From Candidatus Saccharimonadota bacterium (GTDB taxonomy: Bacteria; Patescibacteriota; Patescibacteriia; 2-12-FULL-60-25): a DNA stretch of 32,000 nt. Within the stretch, counting starts at the first letter, position 1. Every line of letters starts with the position of its first letter. This document shows, one piece after another, positions 583-30,542 of this stretch. Where the stretch lies: assembly GCA_963718585.1 (NCBI GenBank), contig OY970357.1:720001-752000 (forward strand), read 5' to 3'. Both the position numbers and the translations under genes were made by a program. The notes beneath the pieces were generated by a model. It was not told where the DNA came from. It saw only the letters and a list, made by a program, of their open reading frames with translations, and ran no database searches.

Positions 583-637
583 GTACCTCCGTAGTGTACC
601 TTATTTCCCGATTCTTCTCCTGTCGCCGATGAACACT

Positions 638-885
638 GTCATGTCGAGCTGTCGAGACATCTTCACATTGAATGATCCATTGATGCGCTCGGCAGGGGGT
701 TTCACGTGGAAGATCCTTCGCTTCGCTCTTCCGCCTCCGGCGGAACCCTTCGGGAGGATGACGATCGCTTATAAAGTGTCATGTCGAGCTGTCGAGACAT
801 CTTCACATTGATTGATCCATTGATGCTCTCGGCAGGGGGTTTCACGTGGAAGATCCTTCGTCGCTCCGACTTCCCTCGGAATGAC
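638..885 (+). repeat. Composite repeat, copy L. Module order: A (gtcatgtcgagctgtcgagacatcttc + 44-bp core) - B (inverted hairpin module) - 15-bp linker - A - C
   Basis: The A module occurs at 638-708 and 778-848 (140-bp period, 2 substitutions). B is 709-762, the linker gatcgcttataaagt is 763-777, and C is 849-885. The whole block recurs reverse-complemented at 2115-2363. Confidence 0.9.
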
Positions 886-955
886 AATGCGTCTCGCGTC
901 ATCCCTCTATCACCCTGATCCGCCGGCTGACAGATCCAGGGTCCACATCTGACCT

Positions 956-985
956 GTCATCCCCCGGCTTGACCGGGGGATCTTC
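956..985 (+). repeat. Solo hairpin module of the GTCAT...ATCTTC family
   Basis: gtcATCCCCCGGcttgaCCGGGGGATcttc has a perfect 9-bp GC-rich stem with the family flanks GTC and CTTC. It lies 33 nt downstream of the GT2 stop on the minus strand. A degenerate relative (gtcatccctctatcaccctgatc) is at 898-920. Confidence 0.7.
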
Positions 986-1017: not shown

Positions 1018-2040
1018 TCACACGTACCACTTGCGCATGTCCGGACCGGAGACCTTTGCGCGCTTGGCGAGTTCCGCTCGTTTGGCGTGCATGGCCGACC
1101 ATCCGCCGAATGCCGCAAAGGTGCCTTTGAGCACGGACGGCCGGAATGGGAGCGACAGGAGGCGCAGGAGGCCCAATGGCCACAACCACGGGGCGTGCAG
1201 GAGTCGATTACCGAATTCATCGTTCTTCCAGGCCATCCAGATCCGGTTTCGCGTGAGGAGGAAGGATCCGCGCGCCGAGATCCGCGGACGCTTAGCCGTC
1301 CCGACCGGGCGGTGACGCCACACGAGCGCATCCGGAACGAGCGAGGTCCGCATCCCGAGGCGGCGCATGCGCCATGCAAGGTCCGCGTCTTCAAAACCAT
1401 CCTGGAATGCCGCGTCATACACCTCACCGCCCAGTTTGGCGGATGCGAGCGCGGACGCGCGGAATAGCGCACAATCGCCGGTCGCTCCGAAGATATCGAT
1501 CTGCGCATCGTATTGGCCGGCGTCCTTTTCCCCCGCCCCGCGCCGGATGACGCGCCGCGACTTGGTGATCGCGAGGCCGACGGCATCGAGGACATCCGTC
1601 TGCTCGGTCTCGCGACGGCCGTCGTCGCCCACGGAGGAGACCACGGCGCGTAGGATCTTGGGCGCGCACGCCGCAAGCTCCGGATCCGCCTCCATGGCGG
1701 CGACCAGGCGGCTCAGGGCATCTGCCGCGAATTCCAGATCCGGATTCGCGACGAGGACGTACCGATGCGCCCAATCTGCCTCGGGCCATCGCGTGAGCGC
1801 CATGGCGATCGCTTGGTCATGCGCGCGGCCGAATCCTTGATTGCGGAAGTTGCGCAGCACCGTCACGTCCGGGCGTTGTTCATTGAGCCACTTCACGGTC
1901 CCGTCATTCGATGCATTGTCGATGATCGTGATCGTGTGATCCCGTTCCGTGAACGTGTCGAGGGACGCGAAAAGATCCGGGAGATATGCGAGCGCATTCC
2001 AGGTGACGATATCGATGACAACGCGTTTTGCTTGATCCAT
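1018..2040 (-). CDS. Family-2 glycosyltransferase (soluble GT-A type)
   Basis: 340-aa ORF with VVIDIVTWNALAYLPDLFASL..ITIIDNASNDGT, VANPDLEF and FEDADLAWRMRRLG, which are typical GT2 (rhamnosyl-transferase-like) signatures. Its C-ending codon bias matches the neighbouring genes. Confidence 0.85.
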   Translation of the reverse strand: MDQAKRVVIDIVTWNALAYLPDLFASLDTFTERDHTITIIDNASNDGTVKWLNEQRPDVTVLRNFRNQGFGRAHDQAIAMALTRWPEADWAHRYVLVANPDLEFAADALSRLVAAMEADPELAACAPKILRAVVSSVGDDGRRETEQTDVLDAVGLAITKSRRVIRRGAGEKDAGQYDAQIDIFGATGDCALFRASALASAKLGGEVYDAAFQDGFEDADLAWRMRRLGMRTSLVPDALVWRHRPVGTAKRPRISARGSFLLTRNRIWMAWKNDEFGNRLLHAPWLWPLGLLRLLSLPFRPSVLKGTFAAFGGWSAMHAKRAELAKRAKVSGPDMRKWYV

Positions 2041-2114
2041 GGGGCGATGATGAAGATGAGGATACAGCGTAAATGCCGCGCATCGGATTGGCTACCCTCC
2101 TTACAAAGAAAATC

Positions 2115-2363
2115 GTCATTCCGAGGGAAGTCGGAGCGACGAGGGATCTTCTTTATGAACCCTCTGCCGAGAGCATCAATGGATCATTCAATCCGAAGAT
2201 GTCTCGACAGGCTCGACATGACACTTTATAAGCAATCGTCATCCTCCCGAAGGGTTCCGCCGGAGGCGGAAGAGCGAAGCGAAGGATCTTCTTCGTGAAA
2301 CCCCCTGCCGAGAGCATCAATGGATCAATCAATGTGAAGATGTCTCGACAGGCTCGACATGAC
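2115..2363 (-). repeat. Composite repeat, copy R (reverse complement of 638-885)
   Basis: Read on the minus strand it gives the same A-B-linker-A-C order. Hand alignment finds about 17 differences over ~249 positions (~93% identity). Module B (2238-2291) matches 709-762 at 54/54. Homology stops exactly at the terminal GTCAT/ATGAC. Confidence 0.9.
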
Positions 2364-2382
2364 ATCATTTCGATCAAAACGG

Positions 2383-3879
2383 TCACGCGCCTTCCCCATC
2401 TGATTTTCGCTTCGGACTCACGTTGAATCCCAGCGGTTTGCCGATCATGAGGCGGGTCTGCGCATCAATGGCCGGGAACGCGCCGAAGACGACGAACGTG
2501 ATCGGCAACAGGAGCCACTGGAGGATCGAGACGACGAGGATCTGGTGTTTGGGCACGTGCGCAGGCCGCGGAGGCAGGAGCAGGAAGGCCATGCCTGCGG
2601 ATACGAAGACGCCGACCATGGCGAACCGCATGAGCCATTGGAGCGTGAACGGCGTGTTCTGGAACACGGCGAACGAACGGAACTGATCGGGCGCGACCCA
2701 GAACGGCAGCCGACCGAGCACGAAGATGAGGATCGGCGCCGTGGCCCAGGTGTACATGCCCTCAAGCTGTTTCCAGATGTAGGTCACCTTCACGCCGAAC
2801 GGGATCTGTTTGTCCTGTCGGAACGCACGCACCATATACGGAAAATTCTCCACGCCCCACGCCCAGCGTCGCAGCTGCTTGTAGAGCGCGGTCAGCGCCT
2901 GCCAATAGTCGCCGGTCATGACCGTGTCCATCGACACCGGGAGATACATCGGCGTCACGCGATAGTTGCCATGATAATGGATGAGCCCCTGCAGGAAGAT
3001 GCGTGAATCTTCGCTGACGATGTCCTTTTGCCAAAACCCGACGTCCGCAAGCATGCGCAAACTCATCGAATGCGAGGAGAACGTCATCATCCCTTCGGGC
3101 TTGGCGAGCTCGGTCATGAGCCAGAACGTCGTGCCGAACATGGCGACGCGGACGATCGCCGGCGATTCCCACAGATTGTTGTTGTAGAGCGGGACGGGCT
3201 GGTATGAGCTCTTCGTCGGTTCGGGCACCGTCAGATACAGATCCGTCAGACAGGAAAAATATTGCGGATGGATGATCGTATCCACGTCGAACGACGACGT
3301 GATGACGTCTTCGTACATCAACCCCATGGCATCGATCTCCGGCAGGATCTGATGACCCGACCAGTTCAGGTTGGACCCTTTGCCCGGGATCTCATCCGGC
3401 AGATCCTTCGGATGGAGCGTGGAGAAGAATTTCAAAAAACGCCCCTCGAACTCCGTACGCAGGACCGCGACATTGCGTTCGAATCGTTCTGCATCGCGCT
3501 CTTCGCCGGCAAGCACGATCATGATCCGGTCTGCGGGATAGGCACCGGTCGCGATACGCTCGAGCGTATCGCGGATCACACCGACCTCTTCCTTATACGT
3601 CGGCAGAAAGACGAGATGGCGGATGCGGTCATACCCTGGCCGGCCTGCCGCGAGCTTTTGCCAATCCTTCTTCCCGTCACGCCGGAAGCGAAACCACGAC
3701 ACGACGAGGAATGGGAGGAAGTACGTGACGCGAAACAACCAGTAGAGGTCAAAGACGATGACAAAATAGATGACCCACAGCGGTCGGATGAATGAAAGCC
3801 CGATCGACGCGATGATCGTGAACCAAACCAATCCTCCGGGGAGGATCTCGAGGAACCGTTGGGATCGGGATGTAGGCAT
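2383..3879 (-). CDS. Membrane-embedded processive family-2 glycosyltransferase (cellulose/chitin-synthase-like)
   Basis: 498-aa ORF with N- and C-terminal TM helices around a GT-A domain. Motifs present: LVFLPTYKEE, FDVDT (DxD), SEDSRIF (xED) and KQLRRW (QxxRW). Confidence 0.8.
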   Translation of the reverse strand: MPTSRSQRFLEILPGGLVWFTIIASIGLSFIRPLWVIYFVIVFDLYWLFRVTYFLPFLVVSWFRFRRDGKKDWQKLAAGRPGYDRIRHLVFLPTYKEEVGVIRDTLERIATGAYPADRIMIVLAGEERDAERFERNVAVLRTEFEGRFLKFFSTLHPKDLPDEIPGKGSNLNWSGHQILPEIDAMGLMYEDVITSSFDVDTIIHPQYFSCLTDLYLTVPEPTKSSYQPVPLYNNNLWESPAIVRVAMFGTTFWLMTELAKPEGMMTFSSHSMSLRMLADVGFWQKDIVSEDSRIFLQGLIHYHGNYRVTPMYLPVSMDTVMTGDYWQALTALYKQLRRWAWGVENFPYMVRAFRQDKQIPFGVKVTYIWKQLEGMYTWATAPILIFVLGRLPFWVAPDQFRSFAVFQNTPFTLQWLMRFAMVGVFVSAGMAFLLLPPRPAHVPKHQILVVSILQWLLLPITFVVFGAFPAIDAQTRLMIGKPLGFNVSPKRKSDGEGA

Positions 3880-4395: not shown

Positions 4396-4998
4396 CTACA
4401 GGATCGGCCCTTCCAGTTTGTTCACGACCACGGTCTTGTCCGTCTTCATGATCGACTCAAGGAACCGGTCCGACATGTCCCGACGATACGTGTACTCGGG
4501 GAGGGTCATGAGCGTGTAGTTGATCTCAAAGCCAAGCTCCTTCTCCGCCTTCTTCATGATCTGCGAAAGTCCCTGCGGACTCACGTCGCCGACAATGAAC
4601 AAATCCACGGGCTGATTGCGCTGACCGGAAAAAATACCCATGAAGGCAACGTACCGAACGTCGCCGAGTTTACGGATGTGTTCATGCAACTTCCACTCGG
4701 TCAGGACGTACGCTTTGATGAGCAGGGCGCGCACTTCCGGCATCAGCGGAAAGTCCCTGTTCGCAACGTAGTACTTCCGTTTGAGTCCAGGGCGACGAAC
4801 GCCCTCATCTTCCTCCTTTGCATGCCCTTCGACCACCAAGCCGATGTTCTGCAGATTCTCGATCTCGCGGCGCACGGCATTGATCTGTGTGTCGATCCGA
4901 CGCGTCAACTCACGCACATAGAACACTTCGTCCGGATTATGAAGAAACAGAGTGAGAAGCTTCACCCGCGTTTTTGAGCCAAATAAGTGTTCAAGCAT
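4396..4998 (-). CDS. Winged-helix (ArsR-like) transcriptional regulator with a C-terminal nucleotidyltransferase-like region
   Basis: The ORF track extends to 5232, but I prefer the ATG at 4996-4998. It gives MLEHLFGSKTRVKLLTLFLHNPDEVFYVRELTRRIDTQINAVRREIENLQNIGLV and avoids overlap with the divergent gene. Confidence 0.7.
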   Translation of the reverse strand: MLEHLFGSKTRVKLLTLFLHNPDEVFYVRELTRRIDTQINAVRREIENLQNIGLVVEGHAKEEDEGVRRPGLKRKYYVANRDFPLMPEVRALLIKAYVLTEWKLHEHIRKLGDVRYVAFMGIFSGQRNQPVDLFIVGDVSPQGLSQIMKKAEKELGFEINYTLMTLPEYTYRRDMSDRFLESIMKTDKTVVVNKLEGPIL

Positions 4999-5122
4999 AG
5001 CGTTGCTTGTATCCTGCCCCTCCCGGACCCTCTTGACAAGAGTGTCGCATCGAACGCCCCGAGCGTCTAGGATGGACGTGCCGTTCCGATATCCAGTATA
5101 CTCGCGAGGACGGACCCGCAAA

Positions 5123-7278: not shown

Positions 7279-7308
7279 AAAAAAGCAGCCCTGGTGGGCT
7301 GCTTTTTG
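7279..7308. terminator. Bidirectional intrinsic terminator between convergent genes
   Basis: aaaaaAGCAGCCCtggtGGGCTGCTtttt has an 8-bp stem (7284-7291 / 7296-7303), an A-run upstream and a T-run downstream. It lies between the stop at 7258 (+) and the rplL stop at 7322 (-). Confidence 0.8.
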
Positions 7309-7321
7309 GACCAGGGAACGC

Positions 7322-7723
7322 TTACTTGAGCGTCGCCTTGCCGCCGGCCTCTTCGATCTTCTTCTTGATCTCTTCGGCCGTTGCCTTGTCGGCACCTTCT
7401 TTGATGACCTTCGGAGCGCCATCGACCATGTCCTTGGCCTCCTTGAGACCCAGACCCGTCACTTCGCGCACGACCTTGATCACGCCGATCTTGTTAGAAC
7501 CAGCTTCGTTGAGTTCGACGTCGAATGACGACTTCTCTTCCGCGGCACCACCTGCGGCGCCTGCGCCACCGGCCATCATGACCGGAGCCGCTGCCGACAC
7601 ACCGAACTTCTCTTCGAGCACTTTCACGAGCTCAGAGAGGTCCAGGACGGACAACTTTTCGATAGATTCGACGAGGGCCTTGAACTTCTCCGGCACCTCG
7701 ACGACCTTCTGTTCGTCTGACAT
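7322..7723 (-). CDS. rplL: 50S ribosomal protein L7/L12
   Basis: 133 aa: dimerisation N-terminus, Ala/Gly hinge ([21 protein letters not shown]), then C-terminal domain [33 protein letters not shown]. Confidence 0.97.
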
Positions 7724-7750: not shown

Positions 7751-8533
7751 TTAGGCGGCCGGAGCTTCCGGGGCCGCGGGGGGTTCTTCTTTCGGAGTCT
7801 CTGCAGGTGTCTCTGCTTCTGCCGGGGCCTCTTCGGCCTGTGGCGCAGCTTCTTCCTTCGGAGCCTCTTCCTTCACCGGTTCTTCCTTCGGAACTTCGGC
7901 AGGTGCCGCCTCGGCAGGTGCCGGTGCAGCCTCTTCGGCCTTGGGAGCTTCCGCTACGGGAGCTTCTTCCTTCGGAGCTTCTGCAGCCGGGGCCTCTTCG
8001 GCCTGTGGCGCAGCTTCTTCCTTCGGAGCCGGTGCCGCTTCTTCGGGCTTGGCACCCTTCTCGGCCATGGCGTTCAACGCGCGGACGAGAGAGGACATCG
8101 GGCCAGCGATCACGCTGACGAGCATGCCCAGGAGTTCCTTCTTGCCCGGGAGTTTGGAGAGCTCGACGGCTTTGTCCTGGCCGATGATCTGCCCTTCAAA
8201 GACCCCGCCGACGAGCTTGAGCGTGGTGTCCTTGGTCATGTCGCCGAGGACCTTGGCCGGGGCGATCTCGTCCTCGAGGCCAAAGGCCACGGCGAGCATG
8301 CCCGGGAGCGACTTCGCGTCGAAGTCGATACCCGCGCCTTTGGCGGCCCGGGTGAGGAGCGACTTCTTTGCCACGATGTAATCCACGTTCGCCTCACGTG
8401 CTTTGGACCGGAGCCGATCCGCCTGGACCACGGTCAGACCCTGGTAGTCCGCGAACATCACGGACTTGGCCTGTTTGAACTCCTGTTCCAGCCGTTCAGT
8501 CGTCGCTTCTTTCTGCTGACGGGTTTTTGGCAT
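7751..8533 (-). CDS. rplJ: 50S ribosomal protein L10 with a ~100-aa Ala/Pro/Glu/Lys-rich C-terminal extension
   Basis: Start at ATG 8531-8533 (MPKTRQQKEATTERLEQEFKQAKSVMFADYQGLTVVQADRLRSKAREANVDYIVAKKSLL). The track ORF starts 71 codons upstream in non-L10 sequence. The L10 core ends near aa 160 (..SSLVRALNAMAEKG). Confidence 0.92.
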   Translation of the reverse strand: MPKTRQQKEATTERLEQEFKQAKSVMFADYQGLTVVQADRLRSKAREANVDYIVAKKSLLTRAAKGAGIDFDAKSLPGMLAVAFGLEDEIAPAKVLGDMTKDTTLKLVGGVFEGQIIGQDKAVELSKLPGKKELLGMLVSVIAGPMSSLVRALNAMAEKGAKPEEAAPAPKEEAAPQAEEAPAAEAPKEEAPVAEAPKAEEAAPAPAEAAPAEVPKEEPVKEEAPKEEAAPQAEEAPAEAETPAETPKEEPPAAPEAPAA

Positions 8534-10781: not shown

Positions 10782-10790
10782 AGGTGGAAT

Positions 10791-10854
10791 GTCATCCCGA
10801 CCAGAGTGGAGGGATCTTCCGATCGGAAGGTCTTTCGGCTCCGCTCAAGACGAC
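10791..10854. repeat. Convergent pair of GTCAT-family hairpin modules filling the xseA-xseB intercistronic gap
   Basis: gtcatcccgaccagagtggagggatcttc (10791-10819), cgatcg, then gaaggtctttcggctccgctcaagacgac (10826-10854, a degenerate inverted copy). The two arms match at about 18/29 positions as a palindrome. Confidence 0.7.
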
Positions 10855-10861
10855 ATGATCA

Positions 10862-12059: not shown

Positions 12060-13850
12060 CTACTTTCTCAAAAGACCACCCCATTCAACAAGCGTAAAGC
12101 CGCGACGGACCGGCGTTGAGATCTGCGGAGCTGGAAGGATGATCGGCGCATGCAACTTCTGCCAATCCATGAAGATACGGATGACCGTGTCCGGAGGCGG
12201 GATGACGCGGAGCGGCGCGGCGGCAGACCAGGCAGACGTCAGGAAGGAGACGCGGTAATACGGCGCGCCGGTCATCTTCGGCACCCAGAAGTCGCGGAAC
12301 TCTTGAGACTCCTTCTCATTCAATCCGTATTGAGTAAGGATCGTCTTCAACGACACATCCACGTCCCCGTCTTTGATCACGAATCCGTCCTTCGGTGCGT
12401 CATATGCGACCCCGGTCCCCTCCCAGAACAGCGAGCCGTACGAGGATCCCTGATATTCCAGCGTCCCGTCCGGATGCGCGATCACGTTCCATCCCTGCGA
12501 CGGATACGTCGGTTCGCTCTTCGTCACATTGATGAACGGCGCGAGCAGAACGCTCACCGGTTCGGTCTTCGGCGGATACAGGTAGATGACAGGCTTGCCA
12601 CATTCCGTCATGGGCATGGCATCAACAGTCGTCATCCGAACCCAACGCCCGAATGCATCCTTCCAAAGCAGGATCGCGGCGGGATGACTGCGTATGAATT
12701 CGCTGAAAGACGGCTTCTTTCCGTCTTGAGTTGGGGCATACCATTGATCATACGCATTCTTCACCAGATCGTTGGTCGCTGGATCTTTTGGCGTATACAC
12801 AGGATCTCCATTCGGGGTCTTACCCGCGACATCGTAAGAAGATAAAGAACCGACATCCGCATCGCTTACGATATCCGAGCAACCCATCGCCCCACATCCT
12901 CCGATGGTTCGCGCGTTGTAGGACGTGCCTTCCGCCTCGGTGTAAGCCTGATCCCAAGAGATCGCCGGAACGATCCCGCCATTCCGAGTCTCGCCCGCTG
13001 AACGAGCTGGAACGGGTGAGGCGTATCGGACGAGCTGTCCGTCAGGCAGATAGCGGTAGACACAGCCACCCGTCGGCGCGTTTCCATCCTTTGACGGTAT
13101 GGCATAGAGCGTTCTCCCATCTTCAGTCAGACCGATCTTCAGGAGAAGATCGGTGTTTTGAGGTAGGAGATAAGCTCCCTTCGGATCCACGAAGCTCACA
13201 TTGAATCCGTTTCCTTCCCGTACAAGCTCCTTTCCATTCTGGAGCTTCAAGGTCGGTTCGCTATCCAATGAAGGAATATCAACAGCTGTCAGAGGTGTTG
13301 CGTTGAGCGTAAAAAAGACAGAGCTTGAAGGACTATACGCAGGCAAAACATATCCTTTACCGTGCGAAACGATGAACATCGTCTGACCATATCCTCCAGG
13401 AGCCGAAAGACCGGTAGCGATCAAATAGACCTCACCGCCCGTGAGCGGTCCACTCGAGACGGTACCCAGCTTCCACATCTCTTCTAACCATTCCGTGTTG
13501 TCGTCAGGAAAGACGGGCGGCGTCTGCTCTAAACCGAGCGTCGCTTTTTCCATCGACGTATCCGTCGTAAATGATGCGATGACATCCAGGGCGGAAGACG
13601 TTGTCATGCGGGTAGCAATGGGATCCCAAGCGATCTCTATGGTCGTAGTGGCCACAGCCTCATCTGGCGTAGTTGAGGTTGATGCAACAACCTCTGGAGC
13701 CGAAGAGGCCTCCTGCTGAGGGGCGACCGGTGTGGTTTTTGATGGTGCTGTTGTTGAAACGACCATCACATACACCCACAAAGCCACAAGACCGACGACG
13801 AATCCGCCGGCGAAGGCGAGCGGGAGGAACCAACGTTCAGGGAGTTTCAT
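12060..13850 (-). CDS. Membrane-anchored secreted protein, unknown function
   Basis: 596 aa with an N-terminal anchor (WFLPLAFAGGFVVGLVALWVYVMVV) and a Ser/Thr/Pro linker. The C-terminal ~190 aa (CGKPVIYLYPPKTEPVSV..SLFWEGTG..GLNEKESQEFRDFWVPKM..YYRVSF) resemble an uncharacterised conserved domain that I cannot name. The stop lies 4 nt before the xseA start. Confidence 0.75.
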   Translation of the reverse strand: MKLPERWFLPLAFAGGFVVGLVALWVYVMVVSTTAPSKTTPVAPQQEASSAPEVVASTSTTPDEAVATTTIEIAWDPIATRMTTSSALDVIASFTTDTSMEKATLGLEQTPPVFPDDNTEWLEEMWKLGTVSSGPLTGGEVYLIATGLSAPGGYGQTMFIVSHGKGYVLPAYSPSSSVFFTLNATPLTAVDIPSLDSEPTLKLQNGKELVREGNGFNVSFVDPKGAYLLPQNTDLLLKIGLTEDGRTLYAIPSKDGNAPTGGCVYRYLPDGQLVRYASPVPARSAGETRNGGIVPAISWDQAYTEAEGTSYNARTIGGCGAMGCSDIVSDADVGSLSSYDVAGKTPNGDPVYTPKDPATNDLVKNAYDQWYAPTQDGKKPSFSEFIRSHPAAILLWKDAFGRWVRMTTVDAMPMTECGKPVIYLYPPKTEPVSVLLAPFINVTKSEPTYPSQGWNVIAHPDGTLEYQGSSYGSLFWEGTGVAYDAPKDGFVIKDGDVDVSLKTILTQYGLNEKESQEFRDFWVPKMTGAPYYRVSFLTSAWSAAAPLRVIPPPDTVIRIFMDWQKLHAPIILPAPQISTPVRRGFTLVEWGGLLRK

Positions 13851-27391: not shown

Positions 27392-28969
27392 CTAAAGCAA
27401 CGGTTTGCCCGTCATCTCCGGCGGCTGAGGGATCTCCATGAATTTCAAGATCGTTGGCGCGACGTCCGCAAGCATGCCGACCGGCGTCGTCATGGACAGA
27501 TCTCCGCCGACCACATCCCCCACCGGGGCGCGCATCCCTTCGAATTGTTTCCCGATGATCACGAGCGGAACGGGATTCGTGGAATGCTCCTTATCGATCT
27601 CTCCGGTCACGAGATTCTTCACCTCTTCCGCATTGCCATGATCTGCGGTGATGAGACAGATTCCCCCGACGGCAAGCGCCGCATCCACGATCTGCCCCAG
27701 GGCCGTGTCCAAGGCTTCGCAAGCTTTGATCGTCGCCTGTTCATTACCCGTATGTCCGACCATGTCCGCATTCGCGAAATTGAGGATGATGAGGTCGTAC
27801 GTCCCTTTAGATATCTCCTGCACGACGCGTTCCGCGATCAACTCGGCCGACATCTCCGGCGCCTTGTCATAGGTCGACACTCGCGGTGACGGAATGATGA
27901 CGCGATCCTCCCCCGGGAACGCCTCCTCGACCATCCCATTCATGAAGAACGTGACGTGCGCATACTTTTCCGTCTCCGCGATGTGCAGCTGCTTGAGCCC
28001 GGCATCGGACACGACCTTCGCGAGACAATTCTCGATGGTCAGCGGCGGAAACGCGACCGCCACGGGCAGGTCCTTCTCATATTCCGTCATGGTGACGAAA
28101 TGCAGGTCCTTGATGAATTCGCGCGGAAACTTCTCGAACGTCGGCAAGACGAACGCTTTGGTGAGCTCGCGTGCGCGATCCGGACGGAAGTTGAAGAAGA
28201 TGATCGAATCCCCCTCATTCACCGTCGCGATCGGTTTACCATTTTTGGTGATCACGGTCGGGACGATCTCTTCATCGTAGACCTTCTGAGAATACCAATG
28301 TTGGACCGCTTCGGGCGCGGAATCCGTCGTGTATTCGGAAACCCCTTTGACGATCGCTTCGTATGCCTTTTGGATCCGATCCCAGCGGTTGTCTCGATCC
28401 ATCGCGTAGTATCGACCGGCGATCGACGCGATCCGCCCGACCTTCAATTCCGACATCTTCGCCTCCAGTTCGTTGATGAATTCTGCGCCGCTGTTGTAGA
28501 TCGTATCGCGACCGTCCATGAACGCATGGACCACGACCTTGTCGAATTTTTGTCGGACGCAAAGCTCAAGGAGCGCGATACAGTGCTCATCGCTCGCATG
28601 TACGTTTCCCGAGCTGTCCAATCCCATGAGATGGAGCGTGCCGTTGGTCTTTCGGCAGTGAGCGATCGCGTCCAAGAATGCCTTGTTCGTATAAAAATCT
28701 CCGTTCTCGATCGCAAAATTGATGCGCGGCAAGCTTTGATAGAAGATCCGTCCCGCCCCGATGGTGAGGTGACCGACCTCCGAGTTCCCCATCTCGCCCC
28801 ATGACAATCCGACCGCTGAGGCGGAGGCGAGCACGGTCATCGCCGGATAGCTCTCCACGTATTTGCGGAAATGCGGCATGTTCGCCTCGACGATGGCATT
28901 CCCCTCGGCCGGCGGAGCGACACCGAAGCCGTCGAGGACCATGAGGATGATGGGTTTGGGTCGTGCCAT
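27392..28969 (-). CDS. gpmI: 2,3-bisphosphoglycerate-independent phosphoglycerate mutase (iPGM)
   Basis: 525 aa. Motifs: LMVLDGFG, GNSEVGHLTIGAGR (catalytic Ser), HLMGL, MDGRDT, GRYYAMDRDNRW, FNFRPDRARELT, ETEKYAHVTFF, NFANADMVGHTG, TADHGNAEE. Confidence 0.95.
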   Translation of the reverse strand: MARPKPIILMVLDGFGVAPPAEGNAIVEANMPHFRKYVESYPAMTVLASASAVGLSWGEMGNSEVGHLTIGAGRIFYQSLPRINFAIENGDFYTNKAFLDAIAHCRKTNGTLHLMGLDSSGNVHASDEHCIALLELCVRQKFDKVVVHAFMDGRDTIYNSGAEFINELEAKMSELKVGRIASIAGRYYAMDRDNRWDRIQKAYEAIVKGVSEYTTDSAPEAVQHWYSQKVYDEEIVPTVITKNGKPIATVNEGDSIIFFNFRPDRARELTKAFVLPTFEKFPREFIKDLHFVTMTEYEKDLPVAVAFPPLTIENCLAKVVSDAGLKQLHIAETEKYAHVTFFMNGMVEEAFPGEDRVIIPSPRVSTYDKAPEMSAELIAERVVQEISKGTYDLIILNFANADMVGHTGNEQATIKACEALDTALGQIVDAALAVGGICLITADHGNAEEVKNLVTGEIDKEHSTNPVPLVIIGKQFEGMRAPVGDVVGGDLSMTTPVGMLADVAPTILKFMEIPQPPEMTGKPLL

Positions 28970-28970
28970 A

Positions 28971-30542
28971 TCAGCGGAGGAGGATGTGACCTTTCATCTC
29001 TTTCGGAGCTGCGATCCCCATGGTGGAAAGGACCGTCGGCGCGACATCCGCGAGCGTCCCACGACGCAACTTTTTCCGACGCAGACCGGGACCGGCGGCG
29101 AGAAACGGGACGGGGTTCGGATTATGTTCGGTGTCGGGTCCGCCGTGCGGATCGAGCATCTCTTCGGCGTTCCCGTGGTCCGCGGTGACGAAGAGCGTCC
29201 CATGCATCTTCTCGATCTTCTTCCAGAGGATCGCAAGCGCATCGTCGAGCGCTTCGCATGCCTTCACCGTGGCCTCGAAATTCCCGGAATGCGCTACCAT
29301 ATCCGCATTCGCAAAATTCACGAGCGTAAAGTCGTATTTCTTTTTTTCGATCGCTGCGGCGACGCGCCGAGCGAGGGGCATCGCGCTCATCCGAGGCGCC
29401 AGATCGTACCGGGTCACGCGCCGGCTGGGTACCCGGATCCGGTCTTCACCGAAGCGTGGACGATCCGACCCGCCGTTCAAGAAGTACGTCACCATCGCAT
29501 ATTTTTCCGATTCCGCCGCATAGAGCTGCTTCCGCGTTCGAAGGACCTCGACGATCGTGTTCGCGGTCTCACGATGTGGGTAGGCCGCCACGACGCTATC
29601 GAGATCTTTTCCGAATTCGGTCAGGGTGACGAAAAAAAGATCCTTTCGGAATGCATGTCGGCGCTTTGCATACGTCTCACATTCACGAAATGCCGGTTCA
29701 TTGACGAAGGGCTTGGTCAATTGGCGGGCCCGGTCACTCCGCAGGTTCCAAAAGATAACGGCATCGTGATCCGAGATGGGCGCCACGCACGTATTGTTCT
29801 TACAGACGACGGTCGGCGTGATGAACTCATCACTCTCACCGCGCGTATACGCCTCGGTGACCGCCTGCACCGGCGACTCCGCCATCACCCCTTCGCCACT
29901 CGCTAACGCATTGTACGCAAGAGACGTCCGTTCCCAGAACTTGTTCCGATCCATGGCATAGAAGCGGCCCATGACCGTGGCGATCACGAAGTTCGGCGGA
30001 AGGGACTTTTCCAACTCCGCAACGAGATGCGCCGCATGGAACGGCGGCGTGTCCCGCCCATCCGTGAACAAGTGGAGCGCGACACGCGGGAGATGCAGCT
30101 CCTTCGCAAAACGGATCAGCGCCTGCACGTGTTTGGGCGAGGCGTGTCCGCTCCGGTCGTCGGTCAACAATCCCATGAGATGGAGCGTGCTGTGTTTTCG
30201 CACACAATGTGCCGCCGCCTGGAGGAGCGCGGGATTGTTCTCAAATGTATGATCCAGGATCGCCTGATCGATCACGATCTGATCCGAATCCACGGCCCGG
30301 CCCGCACCGATCGTCGTGTGCCCAGCCTCAGAATTTCCCGGCTGCCCTTTGGGCAGACCGACCGCGAGACCGTCTGCCATGAGCAGGGTGTGTGGGTACG
30401 TCTTCTTCAGCTTATCCCAAAGCGGCATTTTCGCGGACCGCGGAGCATTTCCCTCCTGATTTTTTGAGACGCCAAATCCATCCCAGACGACCACGACAAC
30501 GGGTCCTTTCAGGCGTCGATTGACCGTTTTTTTACGGACCAT
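28971..30542 (-). CDS. Second, divergent iPGM paralogue
   Basis: 523 aa, roughly 35-40% identical to the neighbour by eye. The same motifs are retained: VVWDGFG, GNSEAGHTTIGAGR, HLMGL, TDGRDT, GRFYAMDRNKFW, WNLRSDRARQLT, ESEKYAMVTYF, NFANADMVAHSG, TADHGNAEE. Confidence 0.9.
   Translation of the reverse strand: MVRKKTVNRRLKGPVVVVVWDGFGVSKNQEGNAPRSAKMPLWDKLKKTYPHTLLMADGLAVGLPKGQPGNSEAGHTTIGAGRAVDSDQIVIDQAILDHTFENNPALLQAAAHCVRKHSTLHLMGLLTDDRSGHASPKHVQALIRFAKELHLPRVALHLFTDGRDTPPFHAAHLVAELEKSLPPNFVIATVMGRFYAMDRNKFWERTSLAYNALASGEGVMAESPVQAVTEAYTRGESDEFITPTVVCKNNTCVAPISDHDAVIFWNLRSDRARQLTKPFVNEPAFRECETYAKRRHAFRKDLFFVTLTEFGKDLDSVVAAYPHRETANTIVEVLRTRKQLYAAESEKYAMVTYFLNGGSDRPRFGEDRIRVPSRRVTRYDLAPRMSAMPLARRVAAAIEKKKYDFTLVNFANADMVAHSGNFEATVKACEALDDALAILWKKIEKMHGTLFVTADHGNAEEMLDPHGGPDTEHNPNPVPFLAAGPGLRRKKLRRGTLADVAPTVLSTMGIAAPKEMKGHILLR

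Follow-up and report, generated by a model that had tools for sequence, protein, structure and literature searches.

A 32-kb stretch of a Patescibacteria (Uhrbacteria-like) chromosome, contig OY970357.1 positions 720,001 to 752,000 (hereafter the window, drawn from a genome of ~1.08 Mb and the scope of the module counts below), carries a family of short hairpin modules between its genes. Judged by their sequence and that of their relatives, these modules are probably CGTC/TGTC-tagged repetitive extragenic palindromes (REPs), now known as Ssn-related motifs (SRMs), and substrates of an Ssn-type GIY-YIG nuclease. The type example of the SRM family is the dRS3/NTS repeat of Neisseria. The repeat family and its GIY-YIG nuclease partner, which acts on single-stranded DNA (ssDNA), are already known; new here are the host phylum, an architecture with a 'GA core' and variable interior that lies outside the published search pattern, and the inverted-repeat bracket that the modules form around a family 2 glycosyltransferase (GT2) gene. 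An original prediction, made from the letters of the window, had implied that the family was novel. That implication fails, since the elements match repeats catalogued both as CGTC-tagged REPs (Di Nocera, De Gregorio & Rocco, 2013, BMC Genomics 14:522; PMC3733652) and, in the main text of a later study, as NTS/SRM (Chenal et al., 2025, Nat Commun 16:2388; PMC11893778), an outcome which the prediction itself had named as telling against it. A literature search by sequence strings returned primers only.

The pattern GTCAT-N{15,45}-ATCTTC has 11 matches in the window, compared with 0.94 ± 0.97 in 100 dinucleotide-preserving shuffles (shuffle maximum 4). Ten of these are modules of the original prediction, whose coordinates all hold in the scan, and they fall within three intergenic loci (638-985, 2115-2363 and 10791-10819). 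The eleventh, at 12171-12206, lies in coding sequence with its stem positions unpaired and is an expected chance match. A second scan, for GTC followed by a hairpin of at least 5 bp and CTTC, adds 10826-10854 on the minus strand (GTCGTCTT...AAGACCTTC; module E'). This variant had been listed as degenerate, and is a true member: it forms a hairpin with a GT/AC stem base, in which compensated G-C and T-A pairs stand where the other modules have A-T and T-A. The second 'degenerate' copy, at 898-920, is without a hairpin and its membership could not be confirmed; a looser scan of the 32 kb found no more convincing copies elsewhere. In the 3' end of an iPGM gene, positions 27410-27437 (+; CGTCATCTCCGGCGGCTGAGGGATCTCC) combine a tag and a C-rich tail with a 5-bp stem led by A,T, which could be an intragenic copy, yet is within chance expectation. 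As a measure of independent evidence, the predicted count of 11-12 modules is too high, as the three loci hold 12 copies of only six distinct sequences (A, B, C, D, E and E'), and most copies stem from one inverted duplication.

Each module consists of an unpaired (C/T)GTC tag, an outer stem of ~5 bp that starts with A,T, a return arm and an unpaired C-T-T-C tail, and between the arms of the outer stem there is usually a G-A/A-G 'GA core' around a variable inner hairpin. The tag is TGTC on eight modules and CGTC on four, and complementary A,T occupies stem positions 1-2 in 11 of the 12, E' being the compensated case. The outer stem measures 5 bp and the interior 10-44 nt in modules A, B, C, E and E', whose total length is up to 54 nt. 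The search pattern fixes only the first two stem pairs, so pairing at the three free positions is compensatory evidence, and these positions pair correctly in five of the six module types. The prediction of a hairpin family with conserved ends and covarying stems is thus borne out by compensating stem pairs in the window itself.

Much of this anatomy is shared with the CGTC REPs, which include Neisseria dRS3 and Rickettsia RPE-4 and RPE-6 (Di Nocera et al., 2013; PMC3733652). CGTC REPs carry the tag CGTC, often TGTC and with CCTC allowed, unpaired at one end of the palindrome, have complementary A,T at stem positions 1-2, a stem of 8-9 bp, a loop of 4-5 nt and short unpaired tails with the consensus CCA, and are dispersed in tens to thousands of genomic copies (PMC3733652). 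Their head-head dimers predominate, with frequent heterodimers and spacers of 20-100 bp (more broadly, 1-100 bp) that tend to be conserved. The window modules have the same tag, the A,T at stem positions 1-2 and an extragenic position, and here too head-head dimers predominate, with often conserved spacers and frequent heterodimers. All five window dimers are head-head, with the tags outside, and have spacers of 44, 44, 43, 44 and 6 bp; the convergent pairing described in the original prediction was therefore correct, and the layout it likened to REPs and bacterial interspersed mosaic elements (BIMEs) equals the head-head dimers typical of CGTC REPs. The spurious in-frame translations that it had pointed out, such as SFRGKSERRGIF, are parallel to the peptides SFPRKRES and VIPAKAGI encoded by CGTC REPs (PMC3733652), being of the SF.R...E. 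/ VIP....GI type. The differences lie in the tail, which in the window is short, conserved and unpaired but reads CTT(C) where CGTC REPs have the consensus CCA, in the 5-bp outer stem, GA...GA internal loop and inner hairpins of all modules except D, and in the host, as the five phyla listed for CGTC REPs do not include Patescibacteria.

The more recent definition leads to the same family. Chenal et al. (2025) extended dRS3 to the 28-nt NTS (CGTCATTCCCGCGMAVGCGGGAATCYRG) and defined SRMs, with the search sequence HGTCWYN(0-2)YYVSBRHN(0-5)WNVSBRGN(0-2)RNCYNB given in the main text (PMC11893778). The window flanks TGTCAT...G-ATCTTC fit its terminal parts HGTCWY...G-RNCYNB, on a hairpin with a directional upstream tag as in NTS, and module D (955-985) matches the whole sequence. 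Further features shared with NTS/SRM are clusters that bracket surface-related genes (NTS-gene-NTS) and repeats that flank ssn genes, the latter seen here in nine loci of other genomes. A near-exact copy of the Neisseria NTS consensus (TGTCATTCCCGCGTAGGCGGGAATCCAG) was observed at 3550-3577 (-) of L169, a locus from an uncultured metagenome-assembled genome (MAG) labelled Gammaproteobacteria, which also has a CTTC-tailed module at 13122-13157.

In the system as set out in the main text of Chenal et al., 2025, SsnA is a 94-aa single-domain GIY-YIG protein that binds to the hairpin in its ssDNA form, makes its cut upstream of the hairpin, and is inactive on double-stranded DNA (dsDNA), RNA and the reverse strand. 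The same text describes ssn genes as typically flanked by SRMs, NTS repeats as clustering around surface-protein genes, and transformation with NTS-bearing DNA as lowered by SsnA, and it covers strand-specific binding and cleavage for the Neisseria and Wolbachia pairs only (PMC11893778). Modules of the window type are associated with such genes in relatives and in other phyla. An Uhrbacteria locus (L139) and a related MAG locus labelled Gammaproteobacteria (L156) have 100-101-aa single-domain GIY-YIG genes (PF01541) with modules of the window architecture on both sides (e.g. TGTCATTGCGAGGCCAACGGCCGAAGCAATCTTTC), and module C of the window aligns with the ssn-flanking modules of L139. Seven more Ssn-clade genes were inspected, including those of a cyanobacterium, Dehalococcoidia and Thermodesulfobacteriota, and all have flanking GA-core modules, which brings the tally to nine of nine (L139, L156, L325-L329, L359 and L392), the modules lying on either side of the gene or, at L328/L329, at least upstream of it. 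At L392, TGTCATTCTGAGCGCAGCGAAGAATCTTC lies 18 nt upstream of the ssn start and is followed by ssn and then an inverted module; the module there carries the exact ATCTTC tail of the window. In its layout, an ssn gene between two repeats resembles an element that is mobile or has been domesticated.

The Ssn-like family is very large and well conserved, with E < 1e-8 for 7,994 of 8,000 candidates. The best 120 of the 7,994 are proteins of ~95 aa that share 67-77% identity with the L139 query and come from several phyla, spanning Thermodesulfobacteriota, Dehalococcoidia, WOR-3 and cyanobacteria, and their genes lie mostly on very short contigs. Such identity between phyla, taken with the short contigs, suggests horizontal spread of the Ssn-like genes and assembly breaks induced by the repeats. 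The Ssn-like protein had no sequence match in the PDB and no meaningful NCBIfam name.

Several observations weigh against assigning the window modules to the SRMs. The published search sequence fits one of the six distinct modules, with A, B, C, E and E' failing it, and it matches the canonical NTS but 0 of 150 GA-core motifs, which places the whole GA-core subclass outside it. The 8-9 bp stem and 4-5 nt loop of the CGTC REPs are found in D only. A GIY-YIG or Ssn gene was not found within the 32-kb window, a difference from the NTS/SRM systems, and the main text of PMC11893778 gives no Patescibacteria host and no cleavage data for the GA-core subclass. In ssDNA folding, the stability of A, B, C, E and E' does not exceed that of shuffles (z +0.5 to -1.4), and D is clearly stable (z -4.5). 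Finally, a strict GTC-hairpin-CTTC scan of an unbiased, Patescibacteria-rich sample (80 loci around GT2 homologs, 1.3 Mb) gave 67 matches to the CTTC-tailed form vs 47 expected, with one convincing member. This is near chance, hence the CTTC form is not general in Patescibacteria, and the repeat family, though widespread, is patchy within the phylum. Modules A, B, C, E and E' are assigned to the SRMs, as probable members, via their flanks, their architecture and their homology to ssn-flanking modules.

Outside the window, the GA-core form was traced with two patterns. Viral contigs of IMG/VR were scanned with GTCAT-NNN-GAGCGNAGCGA-NNN-ATC, which has 18 specified bases and is built on the module B core GAGCGAAGCGA, and at least 120 viral loci were found (L205-L324). 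Of the 148 viral matches listed, 141 are complementary throughout the three free stem positions, with at least nine stem triplets on contigs of 32-70% G+C. For the 31 distinct viral 25-mers, pairing reaches 96.8% of cells (86.1% in shuffles) with a covariation score of 0.354 (0.133 in shuffles), and 0 of 500 shuffles reach the pairing or the covariation value; two-sided changes occur at all three free pairs, and slid registers fall to 14-56% paired. A metagenome scan used the ATCTTC-tailed form of the original prediction (GTCAT-NNN-GAG-N{4,30}-CGA-NNN-ATCTTC). Among the 139 matches listed, 118 are fully complementary, interiors span 4-29 nt and G+C ranges from 33% to 71%; GTC is preceded by T in 83 of them and by C in 29. 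A MAFFT alignment of the variable-length modules was non-structural and was excluded from the pair counts.

Within the viral contigs, head-head partners number 41 vs 12 tail-tail among the matches listed, with a median spacer of 28 nt. Single and tandem modules are common outside the window, which makes the module, not the pair, the conserved unit. In phage-labelled contigs the GA-core hairpins sit between phage structural genes; clustering of the open reading frames (ORFs) within 1.5 kb of the motif in the viral contigs gave phage structural families only, with no nuclease or transposase, and no ssn gene was found in the examined stretches of L205-L324. On another viral contig (L020), head-tail modules of the form TGTCATCCCT-[inner hairpin]-AAGGGATCTTCCGCTTT were observed at 1177-1300, 4946-5053 and 7287-7328, all on the strand opposite the genes, with inner hairpins swapped among the copies (CGTTTTG..CAAAACG, TTTTTGCC..GGCAAAAA and CGATTAC..GTAATCG). 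Among the closest relatives that could be retrieved, GTCGTCCTCGGGG[C/A]AAGTCGGAGCGGCCCGAGGACCTTC is present in L121, together with a convergent pair between DUF4012 and mreB.

The failure of the SRM search sequence on all 150 GA-core motifs makes this form appear uncaptured by it. It may be, and we put this forward tentatively, that the window samples an undescribed GA-core subclass of SRMs, whose cognate nucleases form a very large Ssn clade. Between tag and tail, such a subclass would have a 5-bp stem led by A,T, then tandem G-A/A-G and an inner hairpin that can be swapped. Its cognate Ssn clade would be ~70% identical across phyla, and its motif abundant in phage-labelled and cellular contigs.

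The modules could instead act at the RNA level, as transcription terminators, 3'-end mRNA stabilisers or processing sites, which we consider unlikely. All copies are intergenic and lie downstream of or between co-directional genes, and mRNA stabilisation and transcription termination have been hypothesised for REPs of other bacteria in the text of Di Nocera et al., 2013 (PMC3733652). Module D lies 33 nt past the GT2 stop codon and its RNA fold on the transcribed strand has z -6.6, while the E/E' pair (10790-10855) reaches -34 kcal/mol (z -3.5) on that strand via G-U pairs. However, no T-run follows any module, and scanning 500-2500 for terminators yielded none. The modules are oriented both with and against transcription, and shuffles are as stable as the composite units (z 0 to -1.6). 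Rfam has no match at the gathering threshold across the window, with only noise (E 0.55-8.4) across 560-2420 at E <= 10. Conservation of the strand-specific tag and tail extends across phyla, and according to the main text of PMC11893778 the RNA form is not bound by SsnA, which together indicate that it is DNA that is recognised; the modules may have a secondary effect on transcripts. Transcription terminators (no T-runs), hammerhead-like or other ribozymes (no Rfam match), integron attC sites (wrong end motifs) and CRISPR (no array) were each considered as candidate identities and rejected.

A second alternative is that the modules are GTAG-type REPs or REPINs, moved as ssDNA hairpins by a REP-associated tyrosine transposase (RAYT, a Y1 HUH enzyme) whose gene would lie elsewhere in the genome. 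GTAG REPs, BIMEs and REPINs are likewise short, tagged, intergenic palindromes arranged in inverted doublets that can form a single long hairpin, as the E/E' pair does (z -2.9 to -3.5). No target-site duplications are visible flanking any unit, as transposition of ssDNA predicts. They differ in the tag, which is (C/T)GTC here where GTAG is expected, and in the enzyme, a Y1 transposase in their case and a GIY-YIG nuclease in that of the SRMs. The original prediction noted that RAYT, IS200/IS605 and other transposase genes are missing from the window, and the annotated genes agree, with no transposase and no Y1 among them. The RAYT or IS200/IS605 partner that it had in view is of the wrong kind for this family: the survey in which the CGTC REPs were defined saw none of them next to genes for RAYTs or other transposases (PMC3733652), all inspected Ssn-clade GIY-YIG genes are flanked by the present modules, and the enzyme that acts on the family is the GIY-YIG SsnA (PMC11893778, main text). 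A RAYT origin is quite improbable. The suggestion that pair plus spacer (64-126 bp) forms a miniature inverted-repeat transposable element (MITE), cut and pasted by a DDE transposase recognising the GTCAT/ATGAC termini, would account for the inverted termini, the conserved internal spacer and the duplicated copies, but is very improbable, being without support in the absence of target-site duplications, with a spacer that has no copy in JGI metagenomes, plasmids or phages, a conserved unit that is the module and not the pair, and local copies that one inverted duplication explains.

Returning to the reading of the modules as SRMs, their arrangement in the window (Table 1) centres on a surface-glycan gene. 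Four head-head heterodimers make a ~250-bp inverted repeat around the GT2 gene, whose arms (637-888 and 2112-2364) are 96% complementary, and in each arm module A and its spacer are duplicated at 94-98%. The ATTGAT direct repeat, proposed in the original prediction as a possible protein-binding site, does exist, but is restricted to this duplicated spacer. The 44-bp spacer core has no exact match in JGI metagenomes, and blastn of region 630-990 against plasmids and phages gave no match. The arms around GT2 (583-2382) would permit inversion or deletion via recombination between them. Neisseria intergenic mosaic elements (NIMEs) consist of RS blocks of 50-150 bp flanked by dRS3. They resemble the window clusters in having conserved non-hairpin blocks framed by inverted CGTC-type hairpins, the block in the window being the 43-44 bp spacer, and in their intergenic stacking beside surface-structure genes; they differ in sequence, as the window spacer is unrelated and had no match in the JGI metagenomes, plasmids and phages searched.

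Table 1. Hairpin modules, spacers, inverted-repeat arms and the bracketed gene, with positions in the window.
Feature	Position	Strand	Stem base of module type	Remarks
Left arm of ~250-bp inverted repeat	637..888			two head-head dimers
Module A, first copy	637..664	+	ATGTC/GACAT	TGTC tag, GAGCTGTCGA core, CTTC tail
Spacer of dimer 1	665..708			44 bp, conserved; carries ATTGA-TGATCC-ATTGAT
Module B	709..763	-	ATCCT/AGGAT	CGTC tag; two inner hairpins, then GAGCGAAGCGA core
Module A, second copy	777..804	+	ATGTC/GACAT	98% duplicate
Spacer of dimer 2	805..848			44 bp
Module C	849..886	-	ATTCC/GGGAT	TGTC tag; alignable to ssn-flanking modules of Uhrbacteria locus L139
Module D	955..985	+	ATCCCCCGG/CCGGGGGAT	9-bp stem, 5-nt loop; sole module matching the published SRM search sequence
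GT2 glycosyltransferase gene	1018..2040	-		between two repeat clusters; repeat-gene-repeat layout
Right arm of ~250-bp inverted repeat	2112..2364			
Module C	2114..2151	+	ATTCC/GGGAT	CGTC tag
Spacer of dimer 3	2152..2194			43 bp
Module A, 11-nt core variant	2195..2223	-	ATGTC/GACAT	GAGCCTGTCGA core
Module B	2237..2291	+	ATCCT/AGGAT	CGTC tag
Spacer of dimer 4	2292..2335			44 bp
Module A	2336..2364	-	ATGTC/GACAT	
Module E	10790..10819	+	ATCCC/GGGAT	xseA-xseB intergenic region
Module E'	10826..10855	-	GTCTT/AAGAC	GAGCGGAGCCGA core; head-head dimer with E over 6-bp spacer

The genes of the window are housekeeping genes (xseA, uvrD, mltG/yceG, iPGM, metK, rplJ and rplL), and the homologs of its GT2 protein carry Uhrbacteria or Patescibacteria annotations. 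Each of the three repeat loci lies in an intergenic region between minus-strand genes, and the fifth dimer (E/E') sits exactly between xseA and xseB, which encode the exonuclease VII subunits. In the closest relatives that could be retrieved (L121-L124), the gene order is TsaD-like, 506-aa membrane protein, GT2, second GT2 and DUF4012. GT2 is flanked in the window by the ortholog of the 506-aa protein, with 73% identity, and by that of DUF4012, with 40% over the N-terminus. Gene junctions in L121-L124 are 16-68 bp or overlapping, whereas those of the window are 342 and 435 bp and filled with repeats; given the tight junctions of the relatives, the repeat clusters are insertions relative to the orthologous loci. 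The second GT2 gene of the relatives, between GT2 and DUF4012, is absent from the window, and the left repeat cluster is in its place. Two further genes of the window are of note in their own right. The gene for ribosomal protein L10 (7751-8746, -) encodes 331 aa vs 215 aa in relatives, and its C-terminal-encoding part has tandem, in-frame repeats at 7763-8034 with 15-, 84- and 165-nt spacing (GAGCTTCTTCCTTCGGAGC...). Two adjacent paralogs of iPGM, the cofactor-independent phosphoglycerate mutase (iPGM_N + Metalloenzyme), stand in tandem at 27392-28969 and 28971-30542 (-), which is unusual in a ~1-Mb genome.

By analogy with the species in which the system has been studied, the following mechanism can be proposed. 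The tagged strand, whenever it is single-stranded (in replication, uptake of transforming DNA, conjugation or phage DNA), would fold into a hairpin, and a single-domain GIY-YIG nuclease of ~95 aa (Ssn) would bind hairpin and tag together and cut the ssDNA a few nucleotides upstream, with no action on dsDNA, RNA or the opposite strand. A repeat-gene-repeat layout may in this way leave incoming single strands with a shorter stretch of homology, so that the gene between the repeats recombines less. The folding, binding and cleavage steps come from the literature on the Neisseria and Wolbachia pairs, as does a reduced recombination of incoming DNA that bears the repeats, and we infer their transfer to the genome of the window. 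If they hold there, the source genome would encode a cognate Ssn with modules A-E as its putative substrates, and the repeat-GT2-repeat layout would affect recombination at the GT2 gene.

The practical consequence concerns annotation and surveys. The hairpins create spurious ORFs and break assemblies, and should therefore be masked as SRM/CGTC REPs in annotation, while pattern-based genome surveys may undercount the Ssn system, as the GA-core form is missed by the SRM pattern. For the host, a member of the candidate phyla radiation (CPR) with a reduced genome, what emerges extends a system that is already described and is not a system of a new kind. Patescibacteria are named neither in the text of PMC3733652 nor in the main text of PMC11893778, and if the source genome encodes the nuclease, it would have an ssDNA-restriction or recombination-modulating system in this phylum. 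That system would bracket a cell-surface glycosyltransferase gene, as NTS brackets surface-protein genes in pathogenic Neisseria. Episymbiotic bacteria are generally regarded as dependent on DNA uptake. If the GA-core reading is true, the 250-bp inverted repeat around a surface GT2 gene, at a place where relatives have a second GT2, would suggest Ssn-controlled recombination, inversion or deletion at the surface-glycan loci of episymbionts.

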